From Escherichia coli (GTDB lineage: Bacteria > Pseudomonadota > Gammaproteobacteria > Enterobacterales > Enterobacteriaceae), in NCBI RefSeq assembly GCF_046105845.1, contig NZ_CP151004.1: DNA of 64,000 nt; one strand, 5' to 3'. The stretch's first letter is position 1. Each line of letters starts with the position of its first letter. Below the pieces are notes generated by a model. The model ran no database searches, was not told the DNA's origin, and worked only from the letters and a program-made list of their open reading frames with translations. Positions 17,376 to 58,973 of the stretch are shown one piece after another. The position numbers and the translations under genes are program-made.

Positions 17376-18407
17376 ATGTCTGCATTTACCCCGGCAAGTG
17401 AAGTCTTGCTGCGTCACAGTGATGATTTCGAACAAAGCCGTATTCTTTTTGCCGGAGACTTACAGGATGACCTGCCCGCGCGTTTAGATACCGCGGCCAG
17501 CCGTGCTCATACCCAGCAATTCCACCATTGGCAGGTGTTAAGCCGCCAGATGGGGGATAACGCCCGTTTTAGTCTGGTCGCCACGGCGAATGATGTCGCA
17601 GATTGCGATACGTTGATTTACTACTGGCCGAAGAACAAACCGGAAGCCCAGTTCCAGTTGATGAATTTACTTTCTCTGCTGCCGGTGGGCACGGATATTT
17701 TTGTCGTTGGCGAGAACCGCAGCGGCGTGCGCAGCGCCGAACAGATGCTGGCAGATTATGCGCCGTTGAATAAAGTCGACAGCGCCCGTCGCTGTGGCCT
17801 CTATTTTGGTCGTCTGGAAAAACAGCCGGTGTTTGATGCCGATAAATTCTGGGGCGAATACAGCGTCGATGGCCTGACGGTCAAAACGCTGCCGGGCGTG
17901 TTTAGCCGCGACGGTCTGGATGTCGGTAGCCAGTTGCTGCTCTCGACGTTAACTCCGCACACGAAAGGTAAAGTGCTGGATGTCGGCTGTGGCGCGGGCG
18001 TGCTTTCTGTTGCCTTTGCGCGCCATTCGCCGAAAATTCGTCTCACTCTGTGCGATGTCTCTGCGCCAGCGGTAGAAGCCAGCCGCGCAACACTTGCCGC
18101 CAACGGTGTTGAAGGTGAAGTCTTTGCCAGTAACGTCTTTTCCGAGGTGAAAGGTCGTTTTGATATGATCATCTCCAACCCGCCGTTCCACGATGGGATG
18201 CAAACCAGCCTCGATGCGGCGCAAACGCTGATTCGCGGCGCGGTGCGTCATCTTAATAGCGGCGGCGAGCTGCGAATTGTAGCGAACGCCTTCCTGCCTT
18301 ATCCGGACGTGCTGGATGAGACATTTGGCTTCCACGAAGTGATCGCGCAAACCGGGCGCTTCAAGGTGTATCGCGCCATTATGACCCGCCAGGCGAAGAA
18401 AGGTTAA
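17376..18407 (+). CDS. rsmC: 16S rRNA m2G1207 methyltransferase
   Basis: 343 aa; SAM-binding motif [11 protein letters not shown] and NPPFH catalytic motif. Confidence 0.95.
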
Positions 18408-18423
18408 GTATCTGATATCTGTC

Positions 18424-18470
18424 GCCGCATACCGTGTCGGATGCGGCGTACACGCCTTCTCTGACCGACA
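18424..18470. repeat. REP-like palindromic element downstream of rsmC
   Basis: gccgcat...atgcggc and tgtcgg...ccgaca inverted repeats. Confidence 0.4.
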
Positions 18471-18606
18471 AACGAATTATCCACAATCCGCTGATGGACA
18501 TTTTTCCAGCAATTACACCTCCGGCGATAATTAACTATTGACGAAAAGCTGAAAACCACTAGAATGCGCCTCCGTGGTAGCAATTCTTTTTAAGAATTGA
18601 TGGTAT

Positions 18607-18693
18607 GCGAAGGTGGCGGAATTGGTAGACGCGCTAGCTTCAGGTGTTAGTGTCCTTACGGACGTGGGGGTTCAAGTCCCCCCCCTCGCACCA
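18607..18693 (+). tRNA. leuQ: tRNA-Leu (CAG)
   Basis: 87 nt GCGAAGGTGGCGGAATTGGTAGAC...CTTCAGGTG...CCTCGCACCA; anticodon loop CTTCAGGT (CAG); encoded CCA. Confidence 0.95.
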
Positions 18694-18721
18694 AAAACCA
18701 CGTTGATATTGCTCGCACTGG

Positions 18722-18808
18722 GCGAAGGTGGCGGAATTGGTAGACGCGCTAGCTTCAGGTGTTAGTGTTCTTACGGACGTGGGGGTTCAAGTCCCCCCCC
18801 TCGCACCA
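18722..18808 (+). tRNA. leuP: tRNA-Leu (CAG), one variable-arm substitution vs flanking copies
   Basis: 87 nt; identical to copy 1 except C-to-T at 18769. Confidence 0.95.
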
Positions 18809-18842
18809 AACGAGGCGATATCAAAAAAAGTAAGATGACTGT

Positions 18843-18929
18843 GCGAAGGTGGCGGAATTGGTAGACGCGCTAGCTTCAGGTGTTAGTGTCCTTACGGACG
18901 TGGGGGTTCAAGTCCCCCCCCTCGCACCA
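18843..18929 (+). tRNA. leuV: tRNA-Leu (CAG)
   Basis: 87 nt; identical to copy 1. Confidence 0.95.
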
Positions 18930-18967
18930 ATTATCTTTACTTCCTTTCTTGTTGCTTCCCTGTTTTA

Positions 18968-19204
18968 TCATCCCTGCTTCAAATTCATTATCATCAGCAT
19001 GATGCCAGCAATAAGCGCCAGGCACGATGGCAGCAAAACGTAATGCCGCAACTGTTTGTGATACAGCATCACCGGCGTCAATACTAATCCCATCAGAATG
19101 ATAATCCGCCATTGATCCGGCGATAAATCCGCATACATCAGCCCTGCAATCAGCAATCCCGGCAGCAACACTCCCCAGCCACTGCCCAGCGTACGTTGCA
19201 ACAT
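18968..19204 (-). CDS. yjjZ: Small membrane protein YjjZ
   Basis: 78 aa from internal ATG (MLQRTLGSGWGVLLPGLLIAG...); Fur-box-like sequence just upstream. Confidence 0.8.
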   Translation of the reverse strand: MLQRTLGSGWGVLLPGLLIAGLMYADLSPDQWRIIILMGLVLTPVMLYHKQLRHYVLLPSCLALIAGIMLMIMNLKQG

Positions 19205-19223
19205 GGTTTCATCTCTTTCATTG

Positions 19224-19242
19224 ATAATGATAACTAATATCA
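19224..19242. promoter_or_regulatory. Fur box candidate (yjjZ side)
   Basis: GATAATGATAACTAATATC, 15/19 match to GATAATGATAATCATTATC. Confidence 0.5.
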
Positions 19243-19304
19243 TATGATAATTTTTATCATTTGCAAGCCAGAGAAATCCCTTGCTATCGGGTAAACCTAT
19301 CGCT

Positions 19305-19327
19305 AGGATTAGCAATCATTATCATTT
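19305..19327. promoter_or_regulatory. Fur box candidate (fhuF promoter)
   Basis: ...GCAATCATTATCATT... 18 bp upstream of fhuF ATG. Confidence 0.5.
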
Positions 19328-19344
19328 AGATTACTATCCCGATT

Positions 19345-20133
19345 ATGGCCTATCGTTCCGCACCGCTCTATGAAGATGTTATCTGGCGAACGCATCTCCA
19401 GCCGCAGGATGCTGGGCTTGCACAAGCCATACGGGCGACGATCGCCGAACATCGTGAACATTTGCTCGAGTTTATCCGCCTGGATGAACCCGCTCCGCTT
19501 AACGCCATGACGCTGGCGCAATGGTCATCAACGAATGCGCTAAGTTCTCTACTCGCGGTCTATTCCGATCATATCTATCGCAACCAACCAACGATGATCC
19601 GCGAGAACAAACCGCTGATCTCACTATGGGCGCAATGGTATATCGGCCTGATGGTGCCACCATTAATGCTGGCGCTACTGACGCAGGAAAAAGCATTAGA
19701 TGTGTCGCCGGAACATTTCCACGTTGAGTTTCACGAAACCGGACGCGCCGCCTGTTTCTGGGTCGATGTGTGTGAAGATAAAAACGCAACACTACATTCG
19801 CCGCAGCAGCGAATGGAAACGTTAATCAGCCAGGCGCTTGTTCCGGTTGTGCAGGCACTAGAAGCGACGGGAGAGATCAACGGCAAACTTATCTGGAGTA
19901 ATACCGGTTATTTGATCAACTGGTATCTCACTGAGATGAAGCAGCTGCTTGGCGAGGCGACGGTTGAATCGCTGCACCATGCCCTCTTTTTTGAGAAAAT
20001 GCTCACGAACGGTGAAGATAATCCACTCTGGCGTACCGTGGTACTGCGCGACGGCCTGCTGGTGCGCCGCACTTGCTGCCAGCGTTATCGCTTACCGGAT
20101 GTGCAGCAATGTGGCGATTGTACGCTGAAATGA
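19345..20133 (+). CDS. fhuF: Ferric siderophore reductase FhuF (2Fe-2S)
   Basis: 262 aa; C-terminal C-C-x10-C-x2-C cluster (...RRTCCQRYRLPDVQQCGDCTLK). Confidence 0.95.
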   Translation: MAYRSAPLYEDVIWRTHLQPQDAGLAQAIRATIAEHREHLLEFIRLDEPAPLNAMTLAQWSSTNALSSLLAVYSDHIYRNQPTMIRENKPLISLWAQWYIGLMVPPLMLALLTQEKALDVSPEHFHVEFHETGRAACFWVDVCEDKNATLHSPQQRMETLISQALVPVVQALEATGEINGKLIWSNTGYLINWYLTEMKQLLGEATVESLHHALFFEKMLTNGEDNPLWRTVVLRDGLLVRRTCCQRYRLPDVQQCGDCTLK

Positions 20134-20170
20134 AAGCACTGCCGGGGAAGTAAACCCGGCATCATGCGGA

Positions 20171-20848
20171 TTAATAGGGATGCAACACATTACTTGCTTC
20201 GCAATGCCGCATACATAACAGAATATCTGCGGCCTCCAACAACCCTGCGTCAGAACTTACGCCCAGTTTCGACATCACATTAAATTTATGTGCACGGATC
20301 GTTTTGATATTGCGTTTAAGCTGCTCGGCAATTTGTGTCATTGAGTAGCCACGCGACATAAAGCGCAATATTTCTCTCTCCGTCGGGCTTAGCGTCCGGC
20401 TTTGGTTAATGTACCACTGATTGTTCAGTCGGTCGGTCGCCTGACGTACACCATTTAATGACAAAAAGAGTTCCTGATGAAAAATCTCCAGCGTTGACGC
20501 TTTACTTAATACACCGTCCAGCGGTGATGGCGACAATGAACCAATCAGCCGAGCTTCAATATCATCATCCGCAATAACTAAACGCCGGGTACGCGGAAAC
20601 TTAATCGCCAGTTCAGTCAGGCAAGATAATCCCTCTCTGCGCTCACTTCTCATGGCAGAAAAAGAAAAAATGACCGCCGCAAACGAGATCCGCGACATGG
20701 CATCCTGAAATGACTCCTGACTGGTATAGGTATGGAGCTTATAAGGGTTACCCGCAAACTTTCTGAATAAACTCTCAATACCGATACTACTCATGACGCA
20801 TTTTTCTATGAGTGCGACATTTCTCTTCTTAATTCGGCTGTGTTCCAT
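20171..20848 (-). CDS. bglJ: LuxR-type transcriptional regulator BglJ
   Basis: 225 aa; C-terminal LuxR HTH ([25 protein letters not shown]). Confidence 0.9.
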
Positions 20849-55184: not shown

Positions 55185-58100
55185 TTATTTTTTAGCAACA
55201 TAACGCAACAGGCTGCACTGAAAGATGGTCTTAAACCAGCGGGAATCGAAGTCCCTGACTTGCCTCAGGAAAAATACGGCACCGGGTTTACGGTCAAATA
55301 CAGCTTCAAAAGAAGTATTTCCGCTTGCCACAGCTGCAGCGAAGACGGGTAACCAGGCCACGGAATAGCGGTGATTTGCGTCAGGATTAATACCAATCAC
55401 TGGCTTTTTTTGTGACATCATCCATTTATACAGACGCTTGCAGCCATATTCAGGCCAGCGAGCTTCACTGTGCTCACGTAAAAGCTCCTGATACCACCCG
55501 TGGACACAAGATTCAGGAATAGACGGAGGGAGATATCCGTTACTTAACCATTTCTCAATTTCATCGGCATATGTCGGGAACACGAGCCCCAGCCGTTGAA
55601 ACATATTAGTAACCAGTAATTTCTGGGTTTCCTCCGGTGCACCTTTTTGGCTCAGGAACAATTTGAAACGCTCAGATGCAGCTTTGATCTCAAAGATGGG
55701 GAAAAACTCCCATAGAATAGGGAACTCATTCTCAATACGACTCAGGTACTCTGCTGACATTTCAAATTTGAAGAGCGACATTGCCAATGCCTGCGGATGC
55801 TGCACCAGTGCACGCCATACTTCAAAGGTTGCCAGTGGTAAATACCCGAATTGATCGTACAGGCTACGCATAAATTGCCAGCCGGAATGGGCAGGATCGT
55901 TAGCCATCTGTCCGAGAACCAGTGTGATGGTATTAACTTCTGCCTGTGGATTAAAAAGCTGGGTCGCTTTCTGCAATGAGCGGATGTTGCTTTCTTCTAC
56001 CGGTAACGAAGATTCGCCACGAATGAAGCAGGGACGAAAAGCCATCTCTTCACCCGGTTTAGGGACAACCAACCACGGTCCATTTTTGTTAACGATTGAG
56101 CTCAACTCATATTCACCGACAGGCACTCCCTCGCTCATTCTAGATGCTAAGGGAATGGATTTCCTCTCGGGTTCACTTAACAGCATGATAACGGGGGAAG
56201 GAATCTGCCCAGCACGATGGTTCACTGACTGGCTGAGTAATAGTTCTTTTTCATAATCATAGCGCAGGCTGTATTTATAGCGACGAATTTGCCAGGCCAT
56301 GACCACACCTGCCCCCGTAATACGCATCTCAACAACCTGATCAATACCTGCCTCAAGTGAAATCAGGTTCTCAATATGTTCGCGAAGACTATAGAGATTC
56401 AATTCAACAGGACGATCGCTCAACGCCGTATAACACCATTCATGCCATGCCTGTAATCCACTAACGGAGCGCAAATACAACTGCAATGTATATTTTGTCG
56501 GCTCACCATTTCTGGAGAACAGAAACGCTCTGGAACCCAGCAGATCATGCAGCGTAATGTTTTTATCCAGAGGACGTCCGTTTACATCAAGAGCGAGACA
56601 GCCTTTAGCGGGAAAAGGTAACTCAATGTCGATGGGGTCAGCCGCCAAATTAGGCAGAACTTGTAATGTAATAAATGCCGGAGGTACCCCTTCCGCTTTA
56701 AGTTGTATCTCTGTTCGCCCCTCAGTACGCTTACGTGTAGCCTCCAATGTTTTATCTTTAAGTTTTGCTACACAAGGATGCTGTGTGGTGATTAAGATAG
56801 TGCCTTCATTTGCGTGCATTCCACCTTTTATCTCAATACTGAAATCAGCAGGCAAGATACCGATTTTGCGACGCAAGAGCGTTTCATTGTTACTATTACG
56901 GATAGAAAGATATTGAGCCCCCAGCATCTCTTGTATATGACATTGCTCAATTGAAATTCCGCTCAGGTAACGCGTTACATCAATGCTTTGAATATCCGGT
57001 AGTGTAGAAATGACTTTTGGTACACCAATAAATGTTTCATCTGGATGACAAACCCAGCTTGCACGCTTTCCATTTAGAGCAAACCTTCCGATGCTGATTT
57101 GTTCTCTTCCGGTGCGAATCCGATAAGTTTCATTTGCTGTAACTGTAACGTCCTGACATCCCTTCACAGGTAGTGCTTTTAGTCCTAATACGTTTACTGC
57201 GCTCGATTGGCCATCAAAACCAGCAACATTGCTATTATCCCGAGGGAGTACAATCAGAACATCGCTGCTTCGCACACTGCAAGAAGCCTGTCCCTGTAAC
57301 AGCCATTGATCTGCATCAACGATGAAGGTTAACGGCACCTCACCAATGGCAATTTCACTGTCATCAAGTTTAATGCTCCCAACAATCATCCCTCCAGCAC
57401 GAGCCACTAATGACAAACCTGCCGATGGATTTTGCCTGACAAATCTCACTTCGCTTTTACGTAATCGAACTGTTGCCTGTCTGTTTTCCAGGGAAGCATA
57501 GGCTGGCCCAAGGCCAGAGACTTCCTCACCATCTTCACAAATGGCAAGTTCAAAGCGCGTAGTTGACGGCTCGCTTGTTACAGGAAAGGAAACTTCGTCC
57601 GGAAGAGATACTATCACCCTAAGCTCATCTGGATGCTTTTCTGACCAATAGAATTGGCAACGCGTACTCTTATTTTTTTGTAGTCGAGGCTTAGCCTCTA
57701 CAGAGGCTGCGCATAGCAGTCCATTCAAAAAATGCGTTCCTGTTTCATCATCTAACGGTATTGGAAACTCGCTTCGCCAGGTAGGGTGAACCTTCTCAAG
57801 CTGTTGTACTGGTTCTTTGTGATTTATTAGGTTGTGAGTAAGTACTAAGGAATTGAGGTTATCAGCCATATGACTGATAAGTTCTACAGAGGTATCTTCG
57901 CTAAAAACAGTTGGCAGCGCTGATTTTTCTATGACAGCTCTTGCCAGCGAAAGGGCAGAAAAACCTGACTGCTTTGCTTGCTCATATTGTCCAAGGATCC
58001 TGGAGAAAACAGCCAGAAAGCGACTGTCTGATTCTTTGAGTAGCCGGAAAGGTAAACCACCTTCACTGAATAATGTTCCGAGAAAATTGCGTCGTTCAGA

Positions 58101-58475
58101 TTCATAAAATCGAATTGGGCGCAGCCAGTAATCTTCCATCCCTTTCGGTACGATAGTACCAAGCTCTGTGGCGGTGAATGAAATCCCTATTTTTTTATAT
58201 ATAGGGTCCCACGTCCATCCGCATTGCCGTTCATAATCCCTGCGGTACCACTCAGAGCAAAAAAGAACAAAACAGGCAGCAAAGTCCCTATTACATATAT
58301 TAGATTGTGATTGATCGACCGCACGGAGTAGCTGCGTTAATTGGGTATATTCATCATTGGTTGCATGATATTCATAAAGAGGACGGCCATCCGGTTGTCT
58401 CAACCCTCTAAGATTCACAAAGTTACTTAGCCAGGAAGTACATTTTACCCATGAAATGTATTCTGATTGACCCAA
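55185..58475 (-). CDS. Large protein with no recognisable motif; candidate DruH-like partner of the helicase
   Basis: ORF 55185..58523 (GTG); preferred TTG start at 58475 preceded by AAGGAG with 6-nt spacer; 12-bp gap to downstream helicase gene. Confidence 0.8.
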   Translation of the reverse strand: MGQSEYISWVKCTSWLSNFVNLRGLRQPDGRPLYEYHATNDEYTQLTQLLRAVDQSQSNICNRDFAACFVLFCSEWYRRDYERQCGWTWDPIYKKIGISFTATELGTIVPKGMEDYWLRPIRFYESERRNFLGTLFSEGGLPFRLLKESDSRFLAVFSRILGQYEQAKQSGFSALSLARAVIEKSALPTVFSEDTSVELISHMADNLNSLVLTHNLINHKEPVQQLEKVHPTWRSEFPIPLDDETGTHFLNGLLCAASVEAKPRLQKNKSTRCQFYWSEKHPDELRVIVSLPDEVSFPVTSEPSTTRFELAICEDGEEVSGLGPAYASLENRQATVRLRKSEVRFVRQNPSAGLSLVARAGGMIVGSIKLDDSEIAIGEVPLTFIVDADQWLLQGQASCSVRSSDVLIVLPRDNSNVAGFDGQSSAVNVLGLKALPVKGCQDVTVTANETYRIRTGREQISIGRFALNGKRASWVCHPDETFIGVPKVISTLPDIQSIDVTRYLSGISIEQCHIQEMLGAQYLSIRNSNNETLLRRKIGILPADFSIEIKGGMHANEGTILITTQHPCVAKLKDKTLEATRKRTEGRTEIQLKAEGVPPAFITLQVLPNLAADPIDIELPFPAKGCLALDVNGRPLDKNITLHDLLGSRAFLFSRNGEPTKYTLQLYLRSVSGLQAWHEWCYTALSDRPVELNLYSLREHIENLISLEAGIDQVVEMRITGAGVVMAWQIRRYKYSLRYDYEKELLLSQSVNHRAGQIPSPVIMLLSEPERKSIPLASRMSEGVPVGEYELSSIVNKNGPWLVVPKPGEEMAFRPCFIRGESSLPVEESNIRSLQKATQLFNPQAEVNTITLVLGQMANDPAHSGWQFMRSLYDQFGYLPLATFEVWRALVQHPQALAMSLFKFEMSAEYLSRIENEFPILWEFFPIFEIKAASERFKLFLSQKGAPEETQKLLVTNMFQRLGLVFPTYADEIEKWLSNGYLPPSIPESCVHGWYQELLREHSEARWPEYGCKRLYKWMMSQKKPVIGINPDANHRYSVAWLPVFAAAVASGNTSFEAVFDRKPGAVFFLRQVRDFDSRWFKTIFQCSLLRYVAKK

Positions 58476-58973
58476 AGCAAGCTCCTTAGAGATAAAAGAT
58501 ACAAAAACAAAACCCCACAACACTTCTAATTTGAAAGAAAACTTTTCAAAATATCGTATAATTAATCAGGCGGCAACAACTAATTTTTCAGGTCGGTACT
58601 ATAAATTAATTTTAGATAAAAATGATATCAACCATCTATTAATCACAACTCATTTATCACCTGGTTTTATAATTTCAAATGAAAATAAATCTCAAACAAT
58701 CAAAAAGTATGCAGTAGCTAACATTTAACTTTCCAGGATATAAAACAATTAGAGAAACTGCACAATAGCGAATAATGAAAGTTGTAAAGTCAGTCAAAAA
58801 ACACAAGCAATCAGTGTGCGTTTTTTGACCGTTATCGACATGAGTTTAAAGAGTTTAGTGAAGAAGATATTCCTGTACACTCCATACCTATTGATGAATT
58901 GTCTCGGGAAAATTTTTATAACTTAATTTAAAAACATAAAAACGTTTTATTATATATAAATCTATACCCCCCC

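Follow-up and report, generated by a model that had tools for sequence, protein, structure and literature searches.

Here we describe the intergenic region of the divergently transcribed yjjZ and fhuF genes of Escherichia coli, 140 bp that very probably hold two back-to-back sigma-70 promoters, each provided with its own Fur operator and both repressed by Fe2+-Fur. The analysis was carried out on a stretch of 64,000 nucleotides (hereafter the window, to whose numbering all positions refer unless stated otherwise), and the results were set beside published K-12 data and beside orthologous loci of other Enterobacteriaceae. The original prediction had recorded iron control of both genes as an expected feature, and rightly. 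Fur operators between yjjZ and fhuF are already known from direct experiments at the same locus in K-12; current understanding of Fur is unchanged by this locus. What is added is the exact mapping onto this strain, four single nucleotide differences, and comparative evidence pointing to a lineage-specific fusion of two independent operators.

Positions 19205-19344 are exactly the 140-bp intergenic region of yjjZ (minus strand) and fhuF (plus strand) of the E. coli chromosome, with a base composition of 68% A+T. The yjjZ coding sequence (18968..19204, start codon at 19204) specifies a small protein of 78 amino acids (Pfam DUF1435, E = 6.6e-37), and fhuF (19345..20133, start at 19345) a ferric-siderophore reductase of 262 amino acids (Pfam FhuF, E = 1.3e-25; FhuF_C, E = 6.4e-07). 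The open reading frame list, the RefSeq annotation of a 99.3%-identical genome and Pfam agree on the gene identities and the divergent arrangement that had been proposed, and the coordinates are exact. On the yjjZ side are located rsmC (17376-18407, plus strand; open reading frame list and annotation of a related genome) and three tRNA-Leu genes (18607-18926, plus strand; Rfam), and past fhuF the gene order gives bglJ and yjjQ, both on the minus strand. The stretch 18600-20200 was matched over at least 80% of its length in 5423 of 5426 complete E. coli genomes (top identity 99.3%), and the 140-bp region itself was found in 5424 of them, all except 10 being at least 95% identical.

In the mechanically made open reading frame list the yjjZ frame stays open to 115 amino acids, starting from a TTG at 19315 (18968-19315, minus strand) and running across the whole intergenic region. 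This longer form was rejected: the start codon ATG at 19204 and the run of purines preceding it, a candidate Shine-Dalgarno sequence, are conserved between genera (kept in 43 non-Escherichia genomes), and both the annotation and the DUF1435 profile correspond to 78 amino acids. Salmonella yjjZ is likewise open upstream, with an extended form of 91 amino acids, and since the ATG and the purine-rich stretch are conserved, the extensions in both organisms are likely untranslated. The yjjZ leader contains AGAGATGA, which reads GAGGTG in several other genera. The fhuF leader has 31 nt (from the transcription start site, TSS, at 19314 to the ATG at 19345), and no obvious Shine-Dalgarno sequence precedes the ATG within 19316-19344, which ends with ACTATCCCGATTATG. 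An Rfam search of 18400-19600 (E ≤ 1) gave no RNA element in the intergenic region; its sole hits were the three tRNA-Leu genes and, outside of the region, a naRNA4 match below threshold.

The presence of Fur-box-like sequence well above chance was confirmed by two kinds of search. When all 64 kb were searched with the classical 19-mer GATAATGATAATCATTATC, allowing up to three mismatches, one match was obtained, at 19223-19241 (16/19), against 0.02 expected. Ranking of every 19-mer of the window placed the top three all in the intergenic region, namely the 16/19 match at 19223, a 15/19 match at 19246-19264 and a 15/19 match on the opposite strand at 19223. The second search employed a position weight matrix (PWM), built de novo on 18 further K-12 promoter regions whose Fur sites had been shown by footprinting or gel shift (fepA-fes, fepD-entS, fepB, entC, fecA, fecI, fur, tonB, cir, sodA, gpmA, ryhB, sufA, bfd, mntH, ydiE, yqjH and efeU), fhuF and yjjZ being left out to avoid circularity. 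The motif was found by expectation-maximisation with every fourth 19-mer of the training set as a seed; it reads AATGATAATAATTATCAAT, which is the Fur box, and carries 17 bits of information, the training sites themselves scoring 16.2-27.4 bits.

With this matrix five positions in the intergenic region were scored as Fur sites. Beside yjjZ these are site 1a (19220-19238, 14.1 bits), site 1b (19226-19244, 18.0 bits), which overlaps the 16/19 consensus match, and site 1c (19243-19261, centre 19252), whose 21.8 bits is the highest score of the 64-kb window, as given by the PWM scan that the original prediction had proposed. Near fhuF there are site 2a (19308-19326, 18.1 bits), which agrees with the classical 19-mer at just 12 of 19 positions by hand count, and, offset from it by 6 bp, the weak site 2b (19314-19332, 6.3 bits). 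The four stronger sites, at 14.1-21.8 bits, compare with the training range given above. The signal behind the two Fur-box-like sequences that had been predicted is therefore real, and the description as two boxes is too simple: the sites overlap one another in two clusters, with three of them beside yjjZ and one or two beside fhuF.

It might be argued that such matches simply reflect the A+T-richness of promoter DNA and serve no specific function. The region is indeed 68% A+T, Markov simulations of the whole window now and then reach 21.7 bits, and a 19.6-bit match occurs at 58678-58696, in a stretch of 36% G+C with no known link to iron. Against this, when sequence with the base composition of the region (68% A+T) was simulated 5000 times by a first-order Markov model, the top score and the occurrence of four sites above 10 bits within 140 bp each had P of about 2e-4; the box positions are near-invariant over about 25 genera, with flanking intergenic bases that vary; and Fur footprints have been published on a sequence differing at 4 of 140 bases. 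We therefore give this explanation a negligible probability.

The footprints in question were obtained for the K-12 yjjZ-fhuF region by Chen et al. 2007 (PMC2189734; Nucleic Acids Res 35:6762), where DNase I footprinting revealed two Fur-protected regions, fhuF1 of high affinity (K-12 v2 coordinates 4603763-4603815) and fhuF2 of low affinity (4603680-4603733), the strong cluster being also gel-shifted. The same source gives the fhuF TSSs (4603717/4603716), the translation starts of yjjZ (4603827) and fhuF (4603686), a strongest site of 22.3 bits at coordinate 4603779 and a second, weaker site of 9.3 bits. The alignment of K-12 with the window is gap-free, and the coordinates were converted as window = 4623031 - K-12 v2 coordinate. 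In this manner fhuF1 is placed at 19216..19268 (cluster 1, the yjjZ operator) and fhuF2 at 19298..19351 (cluster 2, the fhuF operator, an extent that covers the fhuF -10, TSS, 5' UTR and start codon). The two PWM clusters coincide with the two published footprints; the strongest published site falls at 19252, the centre of site 1c, and our weak site 2b parallels the 9.3-bit site.

Physical Fur binding as well as Fur-dependent expression were taken from published K-12 work. For yjjZ, a small membrane protein gene among the most tightly Fur-repressed ones, transcription was undetectable in the wild type and was seen only when fur had been deleted or in vitro (PMC10301672); the gene is part of the core Fur regulon defined over nine E. 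coli strains, with upregulation upon fur deletion (PMC10164565), and its membership in the direct Fur regulon of UPEC CFT073 is also published. In Salmonella a PyjjZ-gfp fusion responds to iron, with repression when iron is added and induction by the chelator DPI, and the source paper cites yjjZ as a Fur-regulon member. As for fhuF, it appears in a gene table of PMC10164565 alongside exbB, tonB, ent and nrd genes, a table which we read as the conserved regulon list, and fhuF::lacZ is the reporter of the Fur titration assay, derepressed when Fur is titrated (PMC3145626). Footprints and published Fur-dependent expression thus agree in K-12 with the predicted Fur control of both genes, which for the present strain is indicated by its sequence.

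Over the 140 bp the window and K-12 share 136 bases, with no insertion or deletion and with four SNPs, each changing PWM scores by 1.6 bits at most. Position 19206 (G in the window, A in K-12) lies in the yjjZ leader and position 19273 (G, T in K-12) between the clusters. Position 19235 (T, C in K-12) is located inside site 1b and costs about 1 to 1.6 bits, the K-12 allele of site 1a scoring 15.7 bits and that of site 1b 18.9 bits; of 12 other genera aligned, 11 have C at this position, as K-12 does. The fourth SNP, at 19306 (G, T in K-12), falls in the fhuF -10, which reads TAGGAT here and TATGAT in K-12. Because 9 of the 12 other genera in the alignment share TAGGAT with this strain, TATGAT of K-12 is apparently a derived, more consensus-like allele. 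In E. albertii and E. whittamii the hexamer is TAGTAT. The two strains share the locus, its 140-bp length, the five PWM-positive positions in two clusters and the strongest site, and we infer that the alleles of the present strain would behave like those of K-12.

The yjjZ promoter (19231..19266, minus strand) was assigned from a promoter scan (9/12) and from the published TSS. It comprises the -35 TTGCAA (19266-19261), a 16-nt spacer, the -10 TATGAT (19244-19239) and the TSS at 19231. The latter is given in PMC10301672 as 4,605,777 of NC_000913.3, 27 nt upstream of the ATG (4,605,804); the spacer of 16 counted here contrasts with the value of 18 in that paper. The entire promoter, from the -35 to the TSS, falls within cluster 1. 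For fhuF (19281..19315, plus strand) the TSSs were mapped from Chen et al. 2007 and the hexamers were read from the sequence: the -35 TTGCTA (19281-19286), a 17-nt spacer, the -10 TAGGAT (19304-19309) and the TSS at 19314/19315. With TAGGAT as the -10 this promoter reaches just 8/12 and for that reason was not called by the consensus promoter scan in this strain; the TSS lies merely 4-5 nt past the proposed -10 hexamer, shorter than usual, which counts against the proposed promoter. Site 2a reaches from the end of the -10 across the TSS. The two promoters stand back to back and do not overlap, their -35 elements being about 14 bp and their TSSs 83 bp apart.

Within cluster 1 there is in addition a promoter-like pair on the plus strand, TTGATA-16-TATGAT (19221-19248), directed to fhuF. 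Were it a genuine promoter, cluster 1 would also control a second, tightly Fur-controlled fhuF transcript with a leader of about 90 nt, and with 10/12 it is the best consensus promoter match of the region. We hold this for very unlikely: Fur boxes resemble promoter hexamers in composition, conservation of the hexamers is explained by Fur-box bases, and the only reported fhuF TSSs are those at 19314/15 (Chen et al. 2007, PMC2189734). The pair is probably a look-alike made by Fur-box bases.

The simplest mechanism would be classical repression by Fur through occlusion of each promoter. When iron is sufficient, Fe2+-Fur dimers would occupy both operators and block RNA polymerase. In cluster 1 (19220-19261) the three overlapping high-scoring sites would bury the yjjZ -35, spacer, -10 and TSS and keep the gene tightly off; in cluster 2 (19308-19332) one good and one weak site on the fhuF -10, TSS and leader would give a weaker, more easily relieved repression. 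Upon iron limitation Fur would depart, allowing divergent transcription of yjjZ and fhuF. For annotation this means that the strain is predicted to keep the standard iron control of both genes.

The independence of the operators was examined by comparison across the Enterobacteriaceae. A scan for FhuF, with one genome per species, yielded 52 loci from about 25 enterobacterial genera, in which yjjZ and fhuF were located and the PWM was applied. The gap between the two genes is 140 bp in five Escherichia loci (E. coli, E. albertii, E. whittamii and two Escherichia sp.), 155-166 bp in Leclercia and Silvania, and 1396-1444 bp in 40 other loci, among them those of Salmonella, Citrobacter, Klebsiella, Raoultella, Enterobacter, Lelliottia, Kosakonia, Kluyvera, Siccibacter, Trabulsiella, Pseudocitrobacter and Superficieibacter. 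In the one long-gap locus examined, that of Salmonella enterica subsp. arizonae, the gap contains a 354-amino acid open reading frame on the fhuF strand with a GGDEF domain (E = 4.4e-47). The GGDEF gene (diguanylate cyclase) is placed at 816-1880 of locus L024 and at equivalent positions in L021-L068. STM4551 is a Salmonella GGDEF gene; a literature search for it together with fhuF gave no earlier account of this gene order, and the name is therefore not given here to the gene in the gap.

At short (140 bp) and long (about 1420 bp) gaps alike, the Fur sites keep to their own gene. On the fhuF side all 52 loci have a site scoring 14 bits or more, located 34-46 bp before the ATG, and on the yjjZ side at least one site of at least 12 bits accompanies the gene in all 49 loci with a detectable yjjZ, one to three sites being found within about 40 bp of the ATG. 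The phylogenetic footprint on the yjjZ side, taken over 43 non-Escherichia genomes, covers 19223-19250 and 19253-19268, mostly at 90% conservation or more. On the fhuF side conservation falls on CTTGC (-35), TAGGATT (-10) and CAATCATTATCATTTAGATT (Fur site and TSS); over 46 non-Escherichia genomes the first two are at least 90% conserved, and 19313-19332 likewise. At these orthologous promoters the columns of the Fur boxes themselves are at least 90% conserved in 43-46 non-Escherichia genomes. The arrangement with the GGDEF gene (Salmonella, Citrobacter, Klebsiella, Enterobacter, Kosakonia and others) shares with that of E. coli the orthologous genes, the Fur boxes beside each and the promoter hexamers, and differs in that the operators are about 1400-1445 bp apart, with the GGDEF gene and the sequence upstream of it in between.

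Conservation of the yjjZ side stops at 19268 and that of the fhuF side starts at 19271, which sets the approximate junction of yjjZ-side and fhuF-side ancestral sequence at 19269..19270, and at this position most other genera hold about 1.28 kb, the GGDEF gene included. These alignments suggest that the Escherichia region arose from two old, independent operator-promoter units, brought into contact at about 19269/70 by loss of about 1.28 kb. Loss in Escherichia would be the most parsimonious reading, given that sister genera and more distant ones alike possess the GGDEF gene; the differing junction of Leclercia and Silvania suggests that their loss of the GGDEF gene may have been a separate event. 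What databases show as a divergent Fur-regulated region would then be two single-gene operators joined by gene loss, and this is the evolutionary part of what the analysis adds.

Beyond the Fur cluster as seen from yjjZ, at a distance of about 95-130 bp from its ATG, there is a block consisting of TGATGACA, about 16 nt and then GGTGATAAATTG, which is conserved in Citrobacter, Salmonella, Klebsiella, Enterobacter and Kosakonia (L022-L035 and others) and is missing from Escherichia. Lying outside the Fur cluster, it is likely the promoter of the GGDEF gene.

These comparisons bear on the question which gene each cluster serves, since both K-12 footprints were named as fhuF sites (Chen et al. 2007, PMC2189734). 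It can be envisaged that both clusters act jointly on fhuF, the high-affinity upstream one recruiting or nucleating Fur which then extends or loops to the weak one, with repression of yjjZ as a side effect. Besides the naming of the footprints, the extended 'secondary' footprints which Fur gives at higher concentration (Chen et al. 2007, PMC2189734) and the distance of 65 bp from the centre of one cluster (19252) to that of the other (19317), which at some six helical turns would put both on the same face of DNA, would be in line with it. However, in about 40 genomes of other genera both clusters are conserved with about 1.4 kb and a gene between them, and each must accordingly function without the other; cluster 1 exactly covers the -35, -10 and TSS of yjjZ, a strongly Fur-repressed gene; and it is located upstream of the fhuF -35, where occlusion of polymerase is not obvious. 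Joint action on fhuF thus appears to us unlikely.

We infer instead that each cluster serves only its adjacent gene. If the two operators are ancient single-gene units made neighbours by gene loss, this argues for assigning the high-affinity 'fhuF1' to yjjZ and the low-affinity 'fhuF2' to fhuF. The Fur titration assay works because Fur is easily titrated off the fhuF promoter, which fits control of fhuF by the weaker cluster; with cluster 2 as the fhuF operator, the easily titrated reporter is explained despite a very strong Fur cluster 93 bp upstream of the fhuF start codon. Another interaction may be conceived, in which loss of the GGDEF gene in the Escherichia lineage, and separately in Leclercia and Silvania, brought the strong operator to about 65 bp from the weak fhuF operator, on the same face, and Fur bound there cooperatively stabilises Fur at fhuF. 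We regard this as doubtful; if true, the iron threshold of fhuF would differ in Escherichia from that in Salmonella or Klebsiella, and regulation would have been rewired through a deletion and not through a change of binding sites.

Among other divergent Fur promoters two types are useful for comparison. At fepA-fes and fepD-entS a single operator, as described by Escolar in 1998 and Christoffersen in 2001, reportedly serves both overlapping promoters. Like yjjZ-fhuF these are pairs of divergent promoters under Fur repression with a short stretch between the genes (both studies cited in Chen et al. 2007); unlike them, yjjZ-fhuF has non-overlapping promoters with TSSs 83 bp apart and an operator for each. 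Two clusters, TSSs at 19231 and 19314, and a distance of 1.4 kb between the clusters in other genera do not correspond to the shared-operator type of fepA-fes. The closer parallel is fepB-entC, where divergent genes have two separate Fur-protected regions, one per promoter (Brickman et al. 1990, cited in Chen et al. 2007); the fepB and entC footprints are listed separately in Table 3 of Chen et al. (PMC2189734) and both were recovered as separate sites in our PWM training set. In that pair, however, 374 bp lie between the coding sequences, compared with 140 bp here, and both genes belong to one pathway, while yjjZ and fhuF are functionally unrelated as far as known and are neighbours only in Escherichia, Leclercia and Silvania.

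The fhuF promoter may also be a target of OxyR. A candidate site (19286..19322, centre 19304) matches ATAG-N7-CTAT-N7-ATAG-N7-CTAT, whose four elements start 11 bp apart and which was scored together with its T/A positions, at 13/20, the best in the intergenic region and no better than chance, as 3 places in the window reach 14/20 and 11 reach 13/20; because 14 places score equal or higher, the match was not used as evidence. An OxyR footprint at fhuF, from the work of Zheng in 2001, is said to be positioned '40 bp upstream of fhuF'. PMC3378865 cites OxyR as binding the control region of fhuF, and PMC8115020 suggests that fhuF is repressed by OxyR. Oxidised OxyR would probably bind over the fhuF promoter too and repress fhuF.

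Elsewhere in the window the sole other strong Fur-PWM match is the 19.6-bit one at 58678-58696; since whole-window simulations reach 21.7 bits, it probably reflects compositional chance. It is located about 155 bp upstream of a large minus-strand open reading frame ending at 58523. This frame (55185-58523, 1112 amino acids) contains no Pfam domain; in PADLOC it matches DruH (PDLC00049, 1829 bits), which belongs to the Druantia type III anti-phage system. The stretches at 44-49 kb and 58-59 kb have a lower G+C content, 36-45%, which suggests island DNA.
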